Positions 7,196 through 64,000 are shown, counted from the first letter of the stretch. The stretch: DNA of 64,000 bases from an uncultured Gemmatimonadales bacterium (GCA_963741945.1 CAVUKA010000001.1:864001-928000); one strand, 5' to 3'. Made by a program: numbers and translations. Notes: generated by a model not told the origin, from the letters alone.

Positions 7196-7870
7196 GTGCT
7201 AGGCGACTTCTTCTATCAGCTGGGCCAGAGCATCGGCGCACTCGAGTCGCAGCTCCGAGGCAAGGGCGGTGCCGCTGATGCTCCGGCCGCCGCAGTGTAC
7301 GACACGGAGGCGGGTCAGGTCCACGACCTCGACCGGGACGCCTTCGAGGACGACACCGGCTCCAGCGCCGAAGCCATGGAGGGCGCACTCGCCGGCGCCG
7401 CCGCCGCGTGGATCGCTGCCCGTGTCCTCCGCCCCCGCGCCGTGTCCTGGCCCCGCGTGGTCTTTGCCGGCGTGGCCGCCACGGCGCTCGCCGACGCCGT
7501 GGGTCGGACGCTCGAGGGCCGCGGCGCATCCGGCGGGAGGCCGTTCGCCCGCGACCCCGAGGAGCTCCTGGCTCGCGTCACGGCCGGCATCGCCGTCGCC
7601 GCCGGGTACGCGTCGCTCCTCTATCCGCGCATCCCGGGGCCCCCGCTCTTCCGGGGCATGGTGTTCGCCGCCCTCGAGCTGGCCGCCGCCCCTCGCGGCG
7701 GGCTGGTGGGGCTGGCCCGCGACACCCCCGGCATCCGGTTCCCGCTACAGGCGCTGGCCACCCCCGTCGATGAGGACGCGGGCACGCTCTCGCGAGTGGC
7801 CTTCGGCTTCGGTCTGGGCCTGTTCTATCGCGACGGGCGCAAAGATGGCGACGAGGACGAGGAGGACTGA
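7196..7870 (+). CDS. Hypothetical membrane protein
   Basis: AGGAGG RBS before GTG at 7196; hydrophobic segments; acidic tail. Confidence 0.65.
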   Translation: MLGDFFYQLGQSIGALESQLRGKGGAADAPAAAVYDTEAGQVHDLDRDAFEDDTGSSAEAMEGALAGAAAAWIAARVLRPRAVSWPRVVFAGVAATALADAVGRTLEGRGASGGRPFARDPEELLARVTAGIAVAAGYASLLYPRIPGPPLFRGMVFAALELAAAPRGGLVGLARDTPGIRFPLQALATPVDEDAGTLSRVAFGFGLGLFYRDGRKDGDEDEED

Positions 7871-9348
7871 GGCCGCGTCAGCCAGTCCGCGGCCGCACGC
7901 TGCATGATCGGCTCTCCGCCCCACGCCAGGAGGATGTTCGCACCCGGCGTCTCCTCCGCCACGCGCGGCGGCCCGAAAAGCGCCACCGTGGCCCCCATGG
8001 GTGACGCGATCGCCGACGACACCGTGTCCACGGCCGCTGCGCTCAGTCCGGGTCGACCCTTGAAGCCGCGGATGTCGGCGAACAGCGCCACCAGCACGGG
8101 CCGCGACCCGGTGGGTCGGTCCACGCCCCGGACATCGATGCCCGCTGCGGTCAGCGCGGCGGCGAGCTCGCCGCGAGGGGCGCTCACGGGGAATGGGCCG
8201 CCCACGTCGTCGTCCACCACCAGTAGCTCCACCGCCGGCGGGCACGACGGCTGACCGCGCACGGGACGGACGGAACGCGCGGCCAGGGTGCGGGCCCACT
8301 CGGCGTCGCCGGCACGACCCCACAGGCGGGTGGGGTCCGTCTCCGAGGTCCGGTCGTCGGTACGCCCCGCCGCCCGCTCCGCCTCGGCGCGGACCCGGGC
8401 GACAGCCTCGCCGATCCGCTCCTCCGGGACCGCGTCGCCCCTCGCCCGGTCCAGCGCTGCCGCCAGCGCTTCCACGTCGCGCGGGTAGAGGAGCACGTCG
8501 CAGCCGGCGTTCAGCGCCCGCACGGCCGCGTCGGCCTCCGCCGCGCGTGCATCGCTGGCCCCGCCCAGTACCCCTTCCATGATCAGCGCGTCCGTCACGA
8601 TCAGGCCGTCGAACCCCATGCGCTCCCGCAGGAGTCCCGTGAGGATCGGCCGCGACAGCGTGGCCGGCGCGCCGCTGGCGTCCAGCGCCGGGTACGACAC
8701 GTGGGCCGTCATCACGGATTCGACGCCGGCCTCGATCGCCGCGCGGAACGGCGCCAGGTCGGCCGCCTCCAGCGTGGCCGCGTCCGCTTCCACCCGCGGC
8801 AGCGCGAGGTGCGAGTCCGCCGTGGTCCGCCCATGCCCCGGGAAATGCTTCGCGCACGCCAGCGCGCCGCCGTCGCGACACCCCTCGATCCACGCCCGGA
8901 CCTGCCGCGACGCGGTCTCCGGATCATCTCCGAACGCACGGCTCCCCACGATCGGGTTCTCCGGCTCCACGTCCAGGTCGGCCACGGGGGCATAGACCCA
9001 GTTCACGCCCATGGCCAGAGCTTCCCGCGCCGTCAGCTCACCCGCCCGGCGCGTCAGGTCCAGGTCCCCGATCCCCGCCAGCGCCGCCGCCGGCGGCAGC
9101 GATGTGGCGCCCGCGAACTGCTGGCCCGCACCGCGCTCCAGGTCGGCCCCGACCAGCAGTGGATGCGAGCTCCGCTCCCGGAGCTCCGCCGTCAGCTCCC
9201 GCACCGCCCCGGCCGTCCCGCCGAAGATGATGAAGCCGCCCACTCCCAGACCCAGTGCCCGGTCCACGGGCTCGTCGTAGTCTCCGAACGACCCGCTCTC
9301 CACATTCCAGCGGATCGCCGGGAACAGTAGCCGCGCCGTGTCTCTCAT
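7825..9348 (-). CDS. nagZ: Beta-N-acetylhexosaminidase (GH3)
   Basis: ADLERG, KHFPGHGRTTADSH, MTAHV, FDGLIVTDAL motifs. Confidence 0.88.
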   Translation of the reverse strand: MRDTARLLFPAIRWNVESGSFGDYDEPVDRALGLGVGGFIIFGGTAGAVRELTAELRERSSHPLLVGADLERGAGQQFAGATSLPPAAALAGIGDLDLTRRAGELTAREALAMGVNWVYAPVADLDVEPENPIVGSRAFGDDPETASRQVRAWIEGCRDGGALACAKHFPGHGRTTADSHLALPRVEADAATLEAADLAPFRAAIEAGVESVMTAHVSYPALDASGAPATLSRPILTGLLRERMGFDGLIVTDALIMEGVLGGASDARAAEADAAVRALNAGCDVLLYPRDVEALAAALDRARGDAVPEERIGEAVARVRAEAERAAGRTDDRTSETDPTRLWGRAGDAEWARTLAARSVRPVRGQPSCPPAVELLVVDDDVGGPFPVSAPRGELAAALTAAGIDVRGVDRPTGSRPVLVALFADIRGFKGRPGLSAAAVDTVSSAIASPMGATVALFGPPRVAEETPGANILLAWGGEPIMQRAAADWLTRPQSSSSSSPSLRPSR

Positions 9349-56613: not shown

Positions 56614-56830
56614 TGTCAACGACGGATAGAAACGTCCCCTGGGTTCAACGCATAGAAATGTCCCCTCTGGTGGTTCTCATCTCTCCTCCCTGGGCCGGGG
56701 GTGAGGGTGCGGACAGGCCGCTACGCACGCGCTCGCATCTTCGACCATGTTCATGATGCAGCTGTGCTTCCAGGTCCGGACGAGGAGGGGTGCCACCATC
56801 TCGGGTGAAGACGTGACACGAAGCACACGA
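56614..56830 (-). mobile_element. IS21-family terminal end with possible decayed istB 3' remnant
   Basis: TGTCAACGACGGATAGAAACGTCCCCT followed by a second copy CAACGCATAGAAATGTCCCCT; minus-strand frame MVAPLLVRTWKHSCIMNM weakly resembles the IstB C-terminus. Confidence 0.6.
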
Positions 56831-56991: not shown

Positions 56992-58839
56992 ATGACTCCA
57001 GTCGACAATGGCGTGGAGAGCTCCGCTCTCGCGGCAGGAACCACCCTGCCGTCCATGCTCGCGATGCAAGCGCAACATGCGCCCACGGCTCCGGCAATCC
57101 TGGCGCCGCAACGCACGCCCGTATCATACCAGACGCTGCAGCGACGAGTGGGCGAGCTGGCTGCCGATCTCACGGACAGGGGCATCGGCCGCGGTGACGC
57201 CGTGGCCCTGGTCCTGCCGAATGGCCCGGAGTCGGCCCGTCTCTTTCTGGCGGCGGCTTCGGTCGGTGCGGCCGCGCCTCTGAACCCGGCGTATCAGGCG
57301 CCCGAGCTCGAGTTCTTTCTCGGTGATCTCGCGGCCCGGCTCCTGGTGATCGACGCCGATCTGGACTCGCCGGCGCGCGACGTTGCGCGGGGACTGGGGA
57401 TACCGGTGGTGGAGGCGGTGCGGGAGACGGAAGAGATGGAGGCGGGACTCGTGCGATTCGGCGGCGACGGAGCAGCAACCACGAGAGCAGCCGCCGACGG
57501 GCCCGGCGCCCACGATATCGCCCTTGTACTGCATACCTCCGGTACGACGTCGCGGCCGAAGCAGGTTCCACTCTCCCACGGCAATCTGATGGCTTCGGCC
57601 GCCCACATCGGCAGTGCCCTCCGCCTCAGCCAGGCGGACCGCTGCCTCAATGTGATGCCGCTCTTCCACATTCATGGGCTCGTCGCGGCCGCTCTCTCGT
57701 CGCTACGGGCGGGCGGCAGCGTGGTCTGCACGCCGGGATTCCATGCGCCCGACTTCTTCGCCTGGATGGAGGAAACAGAGCCAACGTGGTACACGGCGGT
57801 GCCGACCATGCACCAGGCGATCCTCGCACGGGCGCAGGCGAACCGGGCCGTGATCGATCGGGCCCGACTCCGGTTCGTACGGTCGTCCTCCTCCGCCCTC
57901 CCTCGCAGCACGCTGGCGGAGCTCGAGACCGTGTTCGCCGTGCCGGTGGTGGAGGCGTACGGGATGACCGAAGCCGCGCACCAGATCGCGAGCAACCCGC
58001 TGCCGCCTGGAACGCGGAAGCCGGGGTCCGTCGGTCCTGCCGCAGGACCGGCCGTGGCGATCCTCGGGCCGGCGGGAGAGCGCTTGGGCGCCGATCAAAC
58101 CGGCGAGGTGGCGATCCGGGGCCCGAACGTGACCGCCGGGTACGCCCATAACCCGGAGGCGAACCGAACCGCCTTCGAACACGGCTGGTTCCGGACGGGT
58201 GATCAGGGATACCTGGACCGCGACGGATTCGTCTTCCTGACTGGCCGCCTGAAAGAGATCATCAATCGGGGAGGCGAGAAGATCGCGCCCGTGGAAGTGG
58301 ATGAGGCATTGATGGGACACCCAGGGGTGCAGCAAGCGCTGGCGTTCGCCGTCCGTCACCCCCAGCTGGGTGAAGACGTCGCGGCGGCGGTGGTGCTCCG
58401 TGCGGGCGCGCACGTCGCGGAGCGGGAGCTGCGGGAGTTCGTAGCGACGCGCGTCGCGTACTTCAAGGTCCCTCGCCGCGTGCTCTTCCTGAAGGAAATC
58501 CCGAAAGGCCCCACCGGCAAGCTCCAGCGGATTGGTCTGGCGGATCGATTGGGAATCCCGGCGTTCGATGCCGTACCCGTTGACGCGCCCCCTGTGGCGC
58601 CCCGGACGCCCGTGGAGGAGATCCTGGCGGCACTCTGGGGGCAGATTCTGCGATGCGACCCGCCGGGGGTCTACGACAACTTCTTCGCGGCCGGCGGCGA
58701 TTCGGTCACGGCTACGCAGCTCGTGGCGCGGGTCCGGGACTCGCTCCGGGTTGAGTTGCCGCTCCTGTCGTTTTTCGATGCACCCACGGTGGCCGACACC
58801 GCCGCGGAGATCGAGCGTCTCCTGGCTGCTGAGTCATGA
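56992..58839 (+). CDS. Oxalate-CoA-ligase-like adenylation enzyme fused to a carrier (T) domain
   Basis: LHTSGTTSRPKQVPL, MPLFHIHGL, TWYTAVPTMHQ, EAYGMTEAAHQIASNPLPP, INRGGEKI; C-terminal NFFAAGGDSV. Confidence 0.85.
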   Translation: MTPVDNGVESSALAAGTTLPSMLAMQAQHAPTAPAILAPQRTPVSYQTLQRRVGELAADLTDRGIGRGDAVALVLPNGPESARLFLAAASVGAAAPLNPAYQAPELEFFLGDLAARLLVIDADLDSPARDVARGLGIPVVEAVRETEEMEAGLVRFGGDGAATTRAAADGPGAHDIALVLHTSGTTSRPKQVPLSHGNLMASAAHIGSALRLSQADRCLNVMPLFHIHGLVAAALSSLRAGGSVVCTPGFHAPDFFAWMEETEPTWYTAVPTMHQAILARAQANRAVIDRARLRFVRSSSSALPRSTLAELETVFAVPVVEAYGMTEAAHQIASNPLPPGTRKPGSVGPAAGPAVAILGPAGERLGADQTGEVAIRGPNVTAGYAHNPEANRTAFEHGWFRTGDQGYLDRDGFVFLTGRLKEIINRGGEKIAPVEVDEALMGHPGVQQALAFAVRHPQLGEDVAAAVVLRAGAHVAERELREFVATRVAYFKVPRRVLFLKEIPKGPTGKLQRIGLADRLGIPAFDAVPVDAPPVAPRTPVEEILAALWGQILRCDPPGVYDNFFAAGGDSVTATQLVARVRDSLRVELPLLSFFDAPTVADTAAEIERLLAAES

Positions 58840-59711
58840 GTCCCGGCAAGGAGTTGCGGAACCGACTGGAGGGGCGCGCGACGCTCCCCTTCATAGGCGT
58901 CTACGACGTCTTCTCGGCGTCGCTCGCCGGGCGCCATTTCGATGCCCTCTTCCTCAGCGGATTCGGCTTCGCCGCCAGCCACTACGGGCTACCGGACGTG
59001 GGGTTCGTGGCATGGCCTGACATGGTTTCACTGGTCCAGCGGATCCGCGCGATCCTGCCCCGGCACCACCTTCTGGTGGACATCGACGACGGCTACGGGG
59101 ATCCCGTGGTGGCCGCACGCGTCGCTGCGACCCTCGAACAGGCGGGCGCGTCCGGTGTGGTCCTGGAAGACCAGCGCCGCCCCCGCCGGTGCGGTCATCT
59201 CGGCGGCAAGCAGCTCCTCGAGCTGGATGAGTACCGGCCCAAGCTGGAGCGGGTGCTGCAGGCCCGCTCCGACCTCTTCATCGTGGCCAGGACCGATGCG
59301 AGTGACCCACCGGAAGCGCTTCGGCGGGTGCGGGCATTCGCCGAAGCCGGCGCGGATGCGGTCCTGGTGGATGGGGTGGACCTCGACGTGGTCCGGACTC
59401 TCCGCGGAAAGGTGGACCGTCCTTGGGCATTCAATCAGATCGCCGGGGGCAAAGCCGAGCCGCGATCGCTTCAGGAGCTGAGTTCGGCAGGAATACAAAT
59501 GGCCATCTACAGCACGCCTTGCCTGTTCGCCGCGCAGCACGCCATCGACCAGGCGTTGACACAGCTCATGGCCGATGGCGGACGTCTCCCCGAAGTCGGC
59601 CCCGGCCGCCCCGGATTGGCTGACTGCAACGCCGTCCTCCAGGAAAACCTTGGCGGCGTGATGCACCCGGAAGCCGCGACGACTGCGGATTCCGGTCTAC
59701 GGCCCCGCTGA
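58836..59711 (+). CDS. Isocitrate lyase/PEP mutase superfamily enzyme (oxaloacetate hydrolase-like)
   Basis: LSGFG, DIDDGYG, LEDQRRPRRCGH, ARTDA, MAIYS. Confidence 0.85.
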   Translation: MSPGKELRNRLEGRATLPFIGVYDVFSASLAGRHFDALFLSGFGFAASHYGLPDVGFVAWPDMVSLVQRIRAILPRHHLLVDIDDGYGDPVVAARVAATLEQAGASGVVLEDQRRPRRCGHLGGKQLLELDEYRPKLERVLQARSDLFIVARTDASDPPEALRRVRAFAEAGADAVLVDGVDLDVVRTLRGKVDRPWAFNQIAGGKAEPRSLQELSSAGIQMAIYSTPCLFAAQHAIDQALTQLMADGGRLPEVGPGRPGLADCNAVLQENLGGVMHPEAATTADSGLRPR

Positions 59712-62700
59712 TGCCCATGGCCACTCCTCCGCCGGAAAGCCTGTCCCACCTTTCACCCGCGGCCCGCGATCTACTCGCCCGCCGTTCCCGCGCGGACGAA
59801 TCGTCCTCAGCGGGCAGCGAGCCACTCAGGCATCGGCCGGGGGCCACCGAAGCTCCGCTCTCCTTCGGACAACAGCAGGTCTGGTTCTTTGAGCAGCTCG
59901 AGCCAGGCAGCGCGGTCTATCACCTGCCGAAGGAAGTGCGACTGCGCGGCCCTCTGGACGTCCCGGCGCTCGAGCGGGCGCTCGGCGAGGTTGTCCGCCG
60001 ACACGAGATCTTGCGCACGCGCTACGGCACGCTGGCCGATGGCGCGATCCGCCAGCTCGTCCTCCCGGCGGCCGGACGAGTGGAATTGCCGTGCGTCGAT
60101 GTGACCGCGTCGGCAACGCAAACGGACGAGCCGTCGGACGGCACCCTGGCGCAACCCGAAGCGCTGGCCAGGGGCGAAGGCTCGCCGTGGCGGCGACAGG
60201 TCGGCCTCGATGCGCTGCGGCCCTTCGATCTTGCGGCCGGAGAAGTCTTGCGGGCAAAGCTGTATCGCTTCGGGTCCGAGGACCACCTGCTTCACCTGGT
60301 CTTCCACCACATTGCGTTCGACGGCTGGTCGATGGGAGTGTTCCTGCGCGATCTCGCCAGCGCCTACGGGGGCGCGCTGCGAGGGGATGCGACGTTGCCG
60401 CCTCTCCCGATCCAGTACGGCGACCATGCAGCCTGGGAAGTGAGTCGGCTGGAATCGGGCAGGTTCGATGACGTCATCGACTACTGGCGACGGCGCCTTC
60501 GCGGCGCTCCGCCGGAGTCGACCTTCCCTGCATCCCGTCCGCGGCAGGTGGACCGGACGTATGCGGCGGCACAGGAGCATCGCCGGCTCCCAGACCACCT
60601 GAAGAGCGCTCTCCATGACATGGCCCGTCGACAGAACGCCACCGAGTCCGCCGTGCTCCTGGCCGCGTTCCAGGTCCTCCTGGCCCGCCACTCCGGGGCG
60701 CGGGACGTCGTCGTGGGCGTGCCCGTCGCCGGCCGCACCCGCAGTGAGCAGGAGGACCTCGTAGGCTATTTCGTCAACATGTTGCCCGCTCGGTTGGACC
60801 TTGCCGACGACCCTTCGTTTCGTCAGGTGGTCGACCGGGTCCGGACCGGGCTCCTCGAGGGCTTCGACCATCAGACCGTGCCGTTCGACCGCATAATCTC
60901 CGACCTGCGCGTACATCGCGATGCCGGGATCACGCCGCTCTTCCAGGTGGCGTTCAACGACCGGATTCTCCCGAACCAGGGAGCAGAGTTCGAAGGCCTG
61001 GACGTGGAGATGCGCGCTGGCTTCCACGCCCGGCACCTGCTTGATCTCAGCCTGGAGGTCGGGCACGTGGCCGGGACAATCGAGTGCGATCTGACGTACA
61101 GCCTGGAGCTGTTCGATCCGGGGTACGCCCGTACCCTCCTCCCTCAGCTCGAAACGGTTCTCCAGGCAATGATCGCCGACCCTGACGCCGCCATTACAGC
61201 GGCTCCCCTTCTTCGGCCGGCGGAGCGCTCACGCATCATCGAAGCGGGCCGGGGTCCCCGACGTCCAGTTCCTCCTTCGACCCTGATCCACGAGCTGGTG
61301 CAGGAGCAGGCCGCTCGGGACCCGGAAGCCAGCGCCATCATCGGTGACGAGGAAACGCTCACGTACGGAGAGATGAGGCGGCGGGCTGCAAGCCTCGCTG
61401 CGCGCCTGCGTAACGCGGGAATCGCCCCGGAGACGCGCGTCGGGGTCTTCGTCGACCGGTCTCCCGGACAGATCGTCGCCCTCCTCGGGGTCCTCGAGGC
61501 GGGCGGCGCCTACGTCCCCCTCGACCCATCCTATCCGCGGGAACGCCTGGCCTTCATTGCCCATGACTCGGGGATGGAGGCGATCGTCACGACGCGGCGG
61601 CTTCGCTCGCGCGTCCCCCTCGATTCGATCCCCGCCCTCTGTCTGGATGACCCGTCCACGCCCGACGGCTCCGACGCGGCACCTGCCAGCGTCATCAGGA
61701 ACGTGCCGTCGGACCCGCTGGCGTACATGATATACACATCCGGCTCCACGGGGACGCCGAAGGGAGTGGAAGTTACGCACGCCTCGGTGGCGAACCTCGC
61801 TGCGGCGGAGCGTGACCTGCTCCGCGTCGCGCCGGCCGATCGCGTGCTGCAGTTCTCGACAATCAATTTCGACGTGTCCGTGGCCGAGATCTTCACATCC
61901 CTCACGGCCGGTGCGGCCGTGGTGGTGTGCACTCCCTCGATGCTCACATCCGTCCCGCAGTTCGTGCGCGCGTGCGAGGCGAAGGGTGTGACGCTGCTCT
62001 CCATGAGCACCGCCCTCTGGCACGAACTCGTGGTGTCTCTGGCCGAAGGCGATGTCGAGATGCCGCCCGCCGTGAGAACCGTGATGATCGGGGGTGAAGC
62101 CGCGCGCCCGGACCGCCTTGAACTGTGGCGACGCCACGGCTCGGGCATACCCCTCATCAACGGCTATGGACCTACCGAGACCACGGTCTTCGCAACTGCC
62201 CAGGACCTGACTCACCCGGTGGCCGGGGAGGACGCCGTTGTTCCGATCGGGCGCCCGCTGCACAACGTGGATGTACACGTCCTTGACGAGCGGATGGCTG
62301 TAGTGCCGGCCGGCGTTCCCGGAGAGCTGTACATCGGTGGCCTGTGCGTCGGCCGGGGTTACCATGATCGCCCGGAGTTGACCGCGGAGCGGTTCCTTCC
62401 GGATCCGTTCTCCGCACGACCGGGGGGACGCCTGTACAGGACGGGAGACATCGTGCGGCGACGCGAGGATGGCGCCCTGGACTTTCTCGGCCGTCGAGAC
62501 AACCAGGTCAAGATCCGCGGGTTCCGCATTGAGGCCGGTGAGATCGAGGTGGCAATGGCTGCGCATCCCTCCGTGCGCACCGCCGTTGTCGTGCCGCGGC
62601 CCGATGGCGTGGGTGATCTCCGGCTCGTGGCCTACGTGGTGCCGGCCAGTGGCGTGTTCGACCGGCGCGTTCTCGCTGACCACCTCCGACGGTCGCTTCC

Positions 62701-64000
62701 CGAGTACATGATTCCGACGGCCTTCGTGCGACTCACGGAGCTCCCCCTCCTGCCCAATGGCAAGGTCGACCGGAAGGCACTTCCGGAACCTGATCCGGTT
62801 GGGGAAGCCGCGTTCGAGCCACCCCGGGGCCCCCGCGAGAGCGCGCTGTGCGAGATCTGGGAGAACGTGCTCGGTGTGCAGCCGATCGGACGGAACGTGG
62901 ACTTTTTCGATGTCGGCGGCCACTCGCTGTCTGCCATGCTGGTCGTCGGCCGCGCGGAGGCGGCGCTCGGGATGGAGGTGCCGCTCCGGGCGATCTTTGA
63001 GCACCGCACCGTAGCGCGCCTGGCGGCCTTCCTGGAACGTGCAGAACGGGAACGGGGAGCTCTGTTCCCGCCGATCGAGACCGGGACCGATGTACCCGCC
63101 CCGCTCTCCTTTGCGCAGCGACGTCTGTGGTTTCTCGATCGGCTGGCACCGGGAAGACCAACGTACAACATCCCACTCGCGTTCCAGCTCCGCGGCCACC
63201 TTGATCCCTCAGCACTGCGCAGCGCCTTGCGACGGATCGTGGAGCGGCACGAGCCGCTGCGCTCATGGATCCGCGAGGGCGTCAGCGGACCCGTCCAGGT
63301 CGTCGCGCCTGCCGACCTGTTCGAGCTCGCCGTCGAAGAGGTCCCGGGGGGTCCTGAAGACTCCCAACCCCGGGTGCTGCGCCGCCTGGAGGAGGAGGCG
63401 CACCGTGCGTTTCAGCTCTCGGACGAAATCCCGTTTCGCGCTCATCTCTTCCGGCTGGGCGCGCGCGAGCACGTGCTCTTCCTCTGCCTTCATCACACCG
63501 CTGCGGACGGCTGGTCCGTCGACATCCTCTTCGCGGAGCTTGAAGCGCTCTACGGCGCCGCCCTCGCCCGTGCGGAGCCGGACCTGCGGGCGCTCCCGGT
63601 CTCCTATTCCGACTACGCGAAATGGCAGCATCGGCACGAGGGTCTCCTGCAACCGGGCCTCGAGCGTTGGGTGAAGCGACTTCAGGGTGCGCGTGCGCTG
63701 GAGCTGCCCGTCGACCGCCCGCACACAGGAGTGCAGAGCGGCGCGGGCGGGGAGAGTCGAGCGCGGCTGGACGGCCACGTTCTGGAAGAACTGCGCGATC
63801 TCGCGCGAAGTGAGCAGACCACTCTCCACGTGGCACTATTGACTGCGTTCCACGTCATGCTTTCCCGGCTCAGCGGCCAGGATGACATCGTAGTCGGCAC
63901 GCCCGTGGCGGGCCGCGTTCGGCCGGAGCTCGAGCCGCTCGTCGGCATGTTCGCCAACACGGTCCCCATTCGCGTGGACCTCTCCGGCGAGCCGTCGTTC
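59711..64000 (+). CDS. Non-ribosomal peptide synthetase (C-A-T-C..., truncated by window end)
   Basis: Motifs all in one frame from the TGATG overlap: PLSFGQ, HHIAFDG (60305), YTSGSTGTPKG (61733), NGYGPTE, GGHSL (62915), PLSFAQ, HHTAADG (63491). Confidence 0.93.
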   Translation, partial: MPMATPPPESLSHLSPAARDLLARRSRADESSSAGSEPLRHRPGATEAPLSFGQQQVWFFEQLEPGSAVYHLPKEVRLRGPLDVPALERALGEVVRRHEILRTRYGTLADGAIRQLVLPAAGRVELPCVDVTASATQTDEPSDGTLAQPEALARGEGSPWRRQVGLDALRPFDLAAGEVLRAKLYRFGSEDHLLHLVFHHIAFDGWSMGVFLRDLASAYGGALRGDATLPPLPIQYGDHAAWEVSRLESGRFDDVIDYWRRRLRGAPPESTFPASRPRQVDRTYAAAQEHRRLPDHLKSALHDMARRQNATESAVLLAAFQVLLARHSGARDVVVGVPVAGRTRSEQEDLVGYFVNMLPARLDLADDPSFRQVVDRVRTGLLEGFDHQTVPFDRIISDLRVHRDAGITPLFQVAFNDRILPNQGAEFEGLDVEMRAGFHARHLLDLSLEVGHVAGTIECDLTYSLELFDPGYARTLLPQLETVLQAMIADPDAAITAAPLLRPAERSRIIEAGRGPRRPVPPSTLIHELVQEQAARDPEASAIIGDEETLTYGEMRRRAASLAARLRNAGIAPETRVGVFVDRSPGQIVALLGVLEAGGAYVPLDPSYPRERLAFIAHDSGMEAIVTTRRLRSRVPLDSIPALCLDDPSTPDGSDAAPASVIRNVPSDPLAYMIYTSGSTGTPKGVEVTHASVANLAAAERDLLRVAPADRVLQFSTINFDVSVAEIFTSLTAGAAVVVCTPSMLTSVPQFVRACEAKGVTLLSMSTALWHELVVSLAEGDVEMPPAVRTVMIGGEAARPDRLELWRRHGSGIPLINGYGPTETTVFATAQDLTHPVAGEDAVVPIGRPLHNVDVHVLDERMAVVPAGVPGELYIGGLCVGRGYHDRPELTAERFLPDPFSARPGGRLYRTGDIVRRREDGALDFLGRRDNQVKIRGFRIEAGEIEVAMAAHPSVRTAVVVPRPDGVGDLRLVAYVVPASGVFDRRVLADHLRRSLPEYMIPTAFVRLTELPLLPNGKVDRKALPEPDPVGEAAFEPPRGPRESALCEIWENVLGVQPIGRNVDFFDVGGHSLSAMLVVGRAEAALGMEVPLRAIFEHRTVARLAAFLERAERERGALFPPIETGTDVPAPLSFAQRRLWFLDRLAPGRPTYNIPLAFQLRGHLDPSALRSALRRIVERHEPLRSWIREGVSGPVQVVAPADLFELAVEEVPGGPEDSQPRVLRRLEEEAHRAFQLSDEIPFRAHLFRLGAREHVLFLCLHHTAADGWSVDILFAELEALYGAALARAEPDLRALPVSYSDYAKWQHRHEGLLQPGLERWVKRLQGARALELPVDRPHTGVQSGAGGESRARLDGHVLEELRDLARSEQTTLHVALLTAFHVMLSRLSGQDDIVVGTPVAGRVRPELEPLVGMFANTVPIRVDLSGEPSF

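Follow-up and report, generated by a model that had tools for sequence, protein, structure and literature searches.

A cluster of four genes at the end of a 64,000-nt stretch of DNA from an uncultured Gemmatimonadales bacterium (CAVUKA010000001.1:864001-928000, ~70% G+C; this whole stretch is called the window) encodes a putative nonribosomal peptide synthetase (NRPS) pathway. DNA past the end of the window was also analyzed to complete the third gene. The first gene (g1) encodes an adenylation-carrier (A-T) protein of the oxalate-CoA ligase type and the second (g2) a lyase-branch member of the isocitrate lyase/phosphoenolpyruvate (ICL/PEP) mutase superfamily. The third (g3) is an NRPS with condensation (C), adenylation (A), carrier (T) and thioesterase (TE) domains. 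The fourth (g4), which overlaps the end of g3 past the window, encodes an Sfp-type (ACPS-family) phosphopantetheinyl transferase (PPTase) of 249 aa. Read jointly, the four genes would form an NRPS operon that makes an N-oxalyl dipeptide, with g2 boosting the oxalate supply, a reading that we hold to be evenly balanced between right and wrong.

The stop codon of g1 and the start codon of g2 overlap in an ATGA (58836-58839), and those of g2 and g3 in a TGATG (59709-59713), as expected from the original prediction, which was made from the sequence of the window and described three translationally coupled genes. The ATG of g1 is internal to a longer TTG-initiated frame, and the length of g1 is counted from that ATG. 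Pfam recognizes AMP-binding (9e-72), AMP-binding_C and PP-binding (3.9e-12) domains in g1, the last with a GGDS motif bearing Ser571, and PEP_mutase (1.2e-34) in g2; g3 opens with a Condensation domain that contains HHIAFDG. These assignments agree with the earlier description of g1 as an adenylating enzyme with a GGDS carrier, of g2 as an ICL/PEP-mutase family member and of g3 as starting with an intact C domain that needs an upstream acyl donor. The quoted motifs and family matches are strong and not a matter of chance.

Table 1. Features of the cluster, numbered from the first nucleotide of the window.
Feature	Position	Strand	Basis
g1, A-T loading protein, 615 aa, oxalate-CoA-ligase type	56992..58839	+	Pfam, PDB sequence matches
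g1 acyl pocket H226-I227-H228, S299-S300, G324-M325, H330; K510	57658..57981; K510 58519-58521	+	AtAAE3 alignment
g1 carrier domain, GGDS; phosphopantetheine Ser571 at 58702-58704	58621..58809	+	Pfam PP-binding
g2, ICL/PEP-mutase superfamily, lyase branch, 291 aa; candidate oxaloacetate acetylhydrolase	58836..59711	+	Pfam, PDB matches
g2 catalytic loop RRCGH, Cys119	59184..59198	+	aligns to K(K/R)CGH of PDP, DMML, OAH, PrpB
g2 MAIYSTPC, Ser226 at the OAH marker position	59499..59522	+	residue-level alignment
g3, NRPS, C-A-T-C-A-T-TE, 2475 aa; end 3.1 kb beyond the window	59711..64000 within the window	+	Pfam, translation
g3 C1; HHIAFDG at 60305-60325	59846-61237	+	Pfam
g3 A1	61301-62764	+	Pfam
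g3 T1	62843-63034	+	Pfam
g3 C2; HHTAADG at 63491-63511	from 63098	+	Pfam

When all PDB sequences were searched with g1, the top three matches were all oxalate-CoA ligases: Arabidopsis AtAAE3 (5ie0, 408.6 bits), Lathyrus LsOCS (6qjz, 398 bits) and yeast Pcs60 (8aff, 355 bits), with E-values from 4e-121 to 6e-105. The next family, malonyl-CoA synthetase, follows at 226 bits and FadD13 at 223 bits. One study places the oxalate pocket of AtAAE3 at V215-H216, C288-S289, A313-M314, H319 and K500, and describes S289 and H319 as conserved solely among oxalyl-CoA synthetases (PMC8905533). The pocket residues of g1 align, in order, to AtAAE3 H214, V215, H216, C288, S289, A313, M314, H319 and K500. Among the eight residues named for AtAAE3, g1 retains H216, S289, M314, H319 and K500; the oxalate-specific Ser and His and the catalytic Lys are thus kept as S300, H330 and K510. 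The proposed likeness of g1 motifs to oxalyl-CoA synthetases of the Pcs60/AAE3 type is therefore upheld by both the PDB ranking and the pocket. The protein does not fit the use of free CoA as thioester acceptor, as its carrier domain is fused C-terminally and its A-T clade lies apart from stand-alone ligases. Ser571 of the carrier domain is unvaried in all 15 A-T orthologs. There is no second enzyme of the g1 type in the genome, where the next best match is 32% identical. From its sequence, g1 probably works like an oxalate ligase, but as a carrier-loading variant.

An alignment of 15 A-T proteins was used to scan metagenome contigs for relatives of g1; the 80 closest loci were kept, and carrier domains and neighbors were called by tblastn in flanks fetched up to 6 kb. 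A carrier directly follows the A domain in 16 of the 80 loci and is missing from 55 despite more than 400 nt of contig beyond the A domain; the other nine end too early to judge. Two loci scored without a carrier (L115 and L160) probably have one, as their matches extend to residues 609 and 612. In a FastTree phylogeny of 96 A domains (32 A-T and 64 'stand-alone'), a single clade (support 0.996) takes in 61 of the 64 stand-alone rows, and all 32 A-T rows lie across the branch from it. The three stand-alone rows that fall among the A-T rows are L115, L160 and L090, whose contig stops 10 nt past the A domain. Given this topology, the A-T form looks like a single old offshoot of stand-alone ligases. 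Both groups share the pocket I, H, S, S, G, M, H, K; the only variation is at the first Ser, replaced by C in seven A-T rows and by A in one stand-alone row. All 96 rows retain the oxalate-specific Ser and His, and the g1-type pocket occurs in 15 of 15 genomic A-T orthologs.

The neighbors of the stand-alone ligases bear on the specificity of this pocket. A PanE/ApbA-family reductase gene lies directly downstream of the ligase in four of eight loci inspected (L091, L108, L121 and L161; ~7480-8510 in each). L108 also carries a malate synthase upstream of the ligase, and Tct transporters occur in three of the eight loci. In Methylobacterium extorquens, PanE2 acts as an oxalyl-CoA reductase (PMC8411744); the reductases here were assigned at the level of the family. 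The context fits a route from oxalate via oxalyl-CoA and glyoxylate to malate, and the ligase and the PanE-family gene are likely an oxalate-assimilation pair, which supports oxalate specificity of the bacterial pocket.

The A-T form keeps different company. A C domain is found near the A-T gene in nine of the 16 metagenome A-T loci vs none of the 55 stand-alone loci, and three genomes (L026, L035 and L018) encode the A-T at the start of one long NRPS reading frame, a fusion that argues for hand-off from A-T to NRPS. Taken together, sequence, pocket residues, the context of the sister clade and the gene fusions make an oxalate-type loading module likely.

Oxalate-type A-T proteins are also fused to other enzymes. 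On one metagenome contig (L103, 4058-8385), an A-T is joined to a hexapeptide-repeat acyltransferase, and genes for a methyltransferase and a g2-like protein (45% identical) are also present. Here the loading module seems to supply a transferase that is not an NRPS. In L101 (5992-8640) and L020 (minus strand), the A-T runs straight into a thioesterase (A-T-TE), and no C domain lies in the vicinity.

The NRPS encoded by g3 has C, A, T and TE core motifs, and g4 belongs to the ACPS family. Both HHxxxDG motifs are intact, and the carrier motifs read GGHSL and GGNSL. The protein opens directly with a C domain, without a loading module. C1 is nearest to ordinary elongation C domains (Txo2, 234 bits; Txo1, 229 bits) and far from lipid-starter C domains (CDA C1, 80 bits; RzmA, 54 bits). 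The thioesterase elbow, GHCNGG, carries Cys and not Ser (g3 residues 2247-2252; L003 10450-10467, ~2.4 kb past the window).

Stachelhaus positions were taken from an alignment of A domains, with columns set by the motif positions of EntF. Recognizable codes in related clusters (DILQLGLIYK, DVQFIAHVVK and DAQGLGVVDK) suggest that these columns are correct. The code of module 1, DVASMGGVFK, has no specificity match among the reference codes known to us. The code of module 2, DAFFLGVTFK, recurs in L033, L018 and L028, and we take it to be similar to Ile/Val codes. The predicted product of the operon is thus an oxalyl-X-(Val/Ile-like) dipeptide. Across related clusters, the peptide modules vary while the A-T stays constant, as expected for a shared starter on different peptides.

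The g2 protein falls under every NCBIfam equivalog cut-off, with 148 vs 354 bits for prpB (TIGR02317), 119 vs 420 for carboxyphosphonoenolpyruvate (CPEP) mutase (TIGR02319) and 72 vs 319.55 for PEP mutase (TIGR02320). Its PDB matches are 4iqd (123.5 bits), carnation petal death protein (PDP, 1zlp, 122.6), dimethylmalate lyase (DMML, 3fa3, 113.9), oxaloacetate acetylhydrolase (OAH, 3lye, 105.6), PrpB structures (~94-100) and true PEP mutases (49-68; 1m1b 49, 5unc 68). Modeled with AlphaFold on an alignment of 21 sequences (pLDDT 82.8), g2 superimposes equally well on PrpB, DMML, PDP and OAH in Foldseek (TM-scores of 0.80-0.84). Compared by bit scores and Foldseek, g2 is a lyase-branch member in a subfamily of its own because it is about equally far from PrpB, DMML, PDP and OAH. 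Identity as PrpB was rejected on the TIGR02317 score and on Ser instead of Pro at the marker position described below. A look-up of g2 in the ESM Atlas returned only generic PEP-mutase-family cluster names.

Both features that the original prediction had singled out in g2, a lyase-type RCGH loop and the Ser in MAIYS, are present. The loop reads RRCGH within EDQRRPRRCGH and is unvaried in all 80 rows of the g2 family alignment, and the metal-binding motifs DIDDGYG, LEDQ and ARTD align with those of OAH, PDP, DMML and PrpB. Ser226, which is Ser in 80 of the 80 family rows, stands at a position that is Ser in OAH (3lye, IMIFS) and PDP (1zlp, LIAHS) and Pro in DMML (3fa3), PrpB (1o5q) and 4iqd. 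Joosten et al. reportedly found in 2008 that Ser at this position signals OAH activity, and structure papers on DMML and OAH are said to tie the position to that activity as well. A Ser here would suit an enzyme that, like OAH, binds a hydrated 2-oxo group. Further signatures of the g2 clade are SGFGF, DIDDG, the Arg-rich loop (RPRRCGH) and YSTPC. On these residues, g2 is plausible as the in-cluster oxalate synthase, at a little under even chances. The OAH likeness that had been proposed holds for the Cys loop and the marker Ser. It does not extend to membership of the fungal OAH clade, as the OAH score is below those of 4iqd, PDP and DMML and the TM-scores equal those of PrpB and DMML.

The g2 clade is large. 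Among 8000 candidates scored, 5779 proteins match at E <= 1e-10, the top matches being 60-81% identical, and the only names given to members are 'isocitrate lyase/PEP mutase family protein' and '2-methylisocitrate lyase-like'. Scanning one genome for each species gave at least 571 confirmed relatives in at least 600 matched stretches; the best 80 loci were kept and their neighbor genes typed by targeted tblastn. Three contexts emerged.

In the first, 15 of the 80 loci carry a g1-type A-T (50-62% identical, near full length) together with NRPS genes, and g2 mostly directly adjoins the A-T. Four of these loci are from cyanobacteria, four from Pseudomonadota, three from Planctomycetota, two from Gemmatimonadales, one from Nitrospirota and one from a Bacillota metagenome-assembled genome. 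On one short contig (L017), g2 lies beside a C-A-T gene.

The second context is Dlt-like and comprises 24 of the 80 loci. Another adenylase, 53-100% identical to that of L009, is accompanied by an 88-aa carrier protein in 23 of the 24 loci and by a 455-471-aa membrane protein with a weak DltB match (E 7e-6) in 18. The usual gene order is membrane protein, adenylase, carrier and g2-like gene. Examples are found in L009 (6768-10834), which adjoins lipopolysaccharide glycosyltransferase genes, and L007 (6743-10837); hosts include Methylophilaceae, Accumulibacter, Propionivibrio, Verrucomicrobiota and others. The composition suggests that the cassette acylates an envelope polymer with an acid from the g2-family enzyme. 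The clade is thus found twice independently beside an adenylase and a carrier, which fits a role as maker of the loaded acid.

The third context, defined by the lack of an adenylase nearby, comprises 40 of the 80 loci, 39 of them actinomycete. In 13 of these loci, an SBF-like (DUF4137) transporter gene lies directly downstream of the g2-like gene (L044, 9944-11931, and 12 more), and the two may be an acid-making/export pair. In a quick tree of the 80 rows, from which one short match was dropped, the actinomycete proteins group together (support 100), as do 20 Dlt-linked proteins (support 95); the NRPS-linked proteins are unresolved around these two clades. Context makes no difference to the active-site positions: all 80 rows have Cys119, Ser226 and the metal motifs, 79 have Asp179 and 75 have Ala203. 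The whole g2 clade therefore probably catalyzes one reaction.

What the analysis shows directly is the domain architecture, the family assignments, the pocket residues, the synteny and the gene fusions; we infer that g1 takes oxalate, what g2 catalyzes and what is produced, and propose the following pathway. The PPTase would prime the three carrier domains. The g1 protein, a putative descendant of bacterial oxalyl-CoA synthetases, would adenylate oxalate and load its own carrier, yielding oxalyl-S-T and not oxalyl-CoA. C1 of g3 would join oxalyl-S-T to the A1-loaded amino acid, module 2 would add a branched aliphatic residue, and the Cys-type TE would release the product. The g2 enzyme would most likely raise the oxalate supply by an OAH-type reaction (oxaloacetate to oxalate and acetate), in an accessory and not obligatory role.

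Several observations weigh against this reading, and part of them would suit a different starter. Three of the eight pocket residues of g1 depart from the plant enzymes (V215I, C288S and A313G); these changes in the pocket lining are conservative. LsOCS also uses glyoxylate, 61-fold less efficiently (1.8e3 M-1 s-1; PMC8905533), so a neighboring C2 acid is a conceivable substrate of g1. On the side of g2, identities to OAH, PDP, DMML and PrpB are 27-32%, and OAH is no nearer than the others. Asp179 and Ala203 stand where all five aligned lyases carry Glu (in the 'xxEG' strand and in 'NxxE', respectively), and these replacements qualify the proposed OAH likeness. In Coxiella PrpB, a preprint reports that E182Q abolishes measurable activity (bioRxiv 10.1101/2025.01.06.631558); from the alignment, E182 would be the g2 Asp179 position. 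PDP, a broad-specificity 2-alkylmalate lyase, has the marker Ser too, so the earlier statement that this Ser marks fungal OAH stands as far as the alignment with OAH, and its contrast with the Pro of PrpB and DMML, goes, and not as an exclusive mark. The same g2 active site, moreover, also partners a non-oxalate adenylase: the Dlt-type enzyme has the pocket F-G-H-G-S-G-I-S, without the oxalate His319, and is not oxalate-ligase-like (FadD13 136 bits, LsOCS 119 bits). At the 40 loci of the third context, the g2-like gene has no adenylase neighbor at all.

The same architecture could thus load another small acid, such as glyoxylate, cut by g2 from an isocitrate-like or alkylmalate substrate, or another C2-C3 2-oxo acid from a g2 lyase reaction, and yield an N-glyoxylyl-like peptide. 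Besides the glyoxylate turnover of LsOCS and the three pocket differences, the equal distance of g2 from lyases with glyoxylate, pyruvate or oxalate as product speaks for it, as do the g2-specific substitutions (D179, A203, the Arg-rich loop and D85) and the service of the clade to an adenylase with a roomier pocket. The unvaried oxalate-specific Ser and His in all 96 A domains point the other way, as do the neighbors of the stand-alone sister clade (PanE-family genes and malate synthase, in line with oxalate assimilation) and the marker Ser, with its OAH-like suitability for a hydrated 2-oxo group. We consider such a starter unlikely, if worth keeping in mind.

Alternatively, g1 could load oxalate that comes from metabolism or the environment, with g2 serving by-product removal or recycling, self-protection or an unrelated reaction shared with the Dlt-like and actinomycete contexts. 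Within the flanks retrieved, a g2-like gene accompanies only two of the 16 metagenome A-T loci, so g2 is a frequent but dispensable companion of the oxalate-type loading module. Two minimal relatives, L099 (A-T, C-A-T-TE and PPTase amid housekeeping genes) and L111 (A-T and C-A-T-TE), appear complete and have no g2 within 6 kb. In addition, the g2 clade keeps one active site across three unrelated contexts. Against this, g2 is translationally coupled between g1 and g3, shares a cluster with an A-T at 15 loci from at least six phyla, mostly adjoining it, and in its other main context again accompanies an adenylase and a carrier, pointing to a maker of the loaded acid. A g2 without a part in oxalate supply seems to us improbable to a similar degree. 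The claim that oxalate is made in situ gains from the co-occurrence of A-T and g2 at 15 of 80 loci, and stays inferential in that the pathway does not require it.

An ordinary lipopeptide primed by a FadD7-like fatty-acid ligase would follow from the best NCBIfam model for g1 ('FadD7 family fatty acid-CoA ligase'), a further point against oxalate, and was rejected as very improbable: the score is 425 against a cut-off of 650, the oxalate-CoA ligases outscore FadD13 by 408 to 223 bits, the pocket is small and of the oxalate type, and C1 is unlike lipid-starter C domains. A phosphonate peptide made through a PEP or CPEP mutase, to which the Pfam name PEP_mutase and the label of 4iqd (carboxyvinyl-carboxyphosphonate phosphorylmutase) would point, is the least credible of all and was likewise rejected, as PEP mutases carry the signature EDK-x5-NS whereas g2 has the Cys-bearing lyase loop RRCGH, its scores are far under the mutase cut-offs (and only 68 and 49 bits against 5unc and 1m1b), and no phosphonopyruvate decarboxylase is found among the four cluster genes.

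The cluster comprises only the four genes g1-g4, as judged from the identities of the flanking genes, and is bounded by housekeeping genes upstream and downstream. Upstream, on the opposite strand, lie ffh, rimM, trmD and rnhB, and downstream a sensor kinase, a sigma-54 response regulator and a multiheme cytochrome. One genome of the same genus has the same four genes with the same neighbors, at 63-81% identity for the cluster genes vs 84-95% for the flanks. A g2 relative occurs in only two of the 41 genomes searched, its own genome counted. The third-position G+C content (GC3) of g1, g2 and g3 is 0.79-0.80 vs 0.83-0.93 in most other genes of the window. The cluster looks like an accessory island, and its low GC3 and its presence in only two of 41 genomes suggest acquisition by transfer.

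A scan for sigma-70 promoters and terminators in the 500 bp upstream of g1 found none. This 500-bp interval between ffh and g1 is unconserved in the same-genus genome except toward ffh. It contains two near-identical 16-mers, ATAGAAA(C/T)GTCCCCT(G/C), at 56626-56641 and 56652-56667, 26 nt apart. The pair may be a regulator site; it is absent from the output of the repeat search and has no clear conservation in the same-genus genome.

The proposed system resembles several known ones in part. AtAAE3 (5IE0/5IE3), LsOCS (6QJZ) and Pcs60 (8AFF) share with g1 the ANL fold and Ser289, His319 and Lys500. Unlike these enzymes, g1 has a fused carrier that would feed an NRPS C domain instead of forming oxalyl-CoA, as well as the three pocket changes, and its place is in a bacterial A-T clade whose sister group consists of stand-alone bacterial ligases. 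Fungal OAH (3LYE/3M0J/3M0K) and PDP (1ZLP) share with g2 the lyase branch, the Cys-Gly-His gating loop, the acidic metal motifs and the marker Ser. They differ from g2, which is 27-30% identical to them, in the two Glu positions replaced by Asp ('xxEG') and Ala ('NxxE'), in RPRRCGH and DIDDG, and in origin, as g2 is bacterial and clustered with carrier-protein systems.

The known path to an N-oxalyl amino acid is the beta-ODAP (β-N-oxalyl-diaminopropionic acid) route of grass pea, which uses an oxalyl-CoA synthetase and an acyltransferase. It likewise begins with an AAE3-type oxalate-activating enzyme, but employs free oxalyl-CoA and a soluble acyltransferase, where we propose a carrier-bound oxalyl group, an NRPS C domain and a dipeptide. 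In systems that pair an A-T or a fatty acyl-AMP ligase-acyl carrier protein (FAAL-ACP) didomain with a C-starting NRPS, an adenylase and a carrier also pass an acid to the first C domain. The cluster described here differs from these systems in its proposed C2 dicarboxylate, which is neither a fatty nor an aryl acid, in a C1 that is not of the lipid-starter type and in the co-encoded ICL/PEP mutase-family enzyme. A bacterial route from oxaloacetate to oxalate is that of Burkholderia ObcA/ObcB, which uses acetyl-CoA and belongs to an unrelated family; g2 would make the same acid from the same precursor as a hydrolase of the ICL/PEP mutase type.

A full-text literature search returned no oxalate-primed NRPS and no account of this gene set, a provisional result as most subscription journals were outside its coverage; with the same proviso, it accords with the original prediction, whose author did not recognize a characterized cluster. 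In two of the papers returned, oxalyl appears only as beta-ODAP or oxalyl chloride. Provisionally, oxalate as an NRPS starter unit with a co-encoded supply enzyme would be new here.

We speculate further, as a doubtful generalization, that N-oxalyl peptides and amino acids may be an unrecognized class of products from many phyla, primed by a carrier-loading branch of oxalyl-CoA synthetases. The g2 clade would then be the first bacterial OAH-type oxalate synthase of its superfamily, and the same clade would supply acid for envelope acylation by the Dlt-like cassette (MBOAT, adenylase, carrier) and for actinomycete export.

If the proposed pathway is true, oxalate would be an additional starter unit of NRPS. 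The products could act as antimetabolites or metallophores, as N-oxalyl amino acids resemble 2-oxoglutarate and chelate metals. The A-T loading module, a clade of its own, was seen with varied peptide modules in 15 genomes and in no fewer than 16 metagenome contigs, so that a single biochemical result would annotate the family, and a function would also be assigned to the large g2 clade of the ICL/PEP mutase superfamily.

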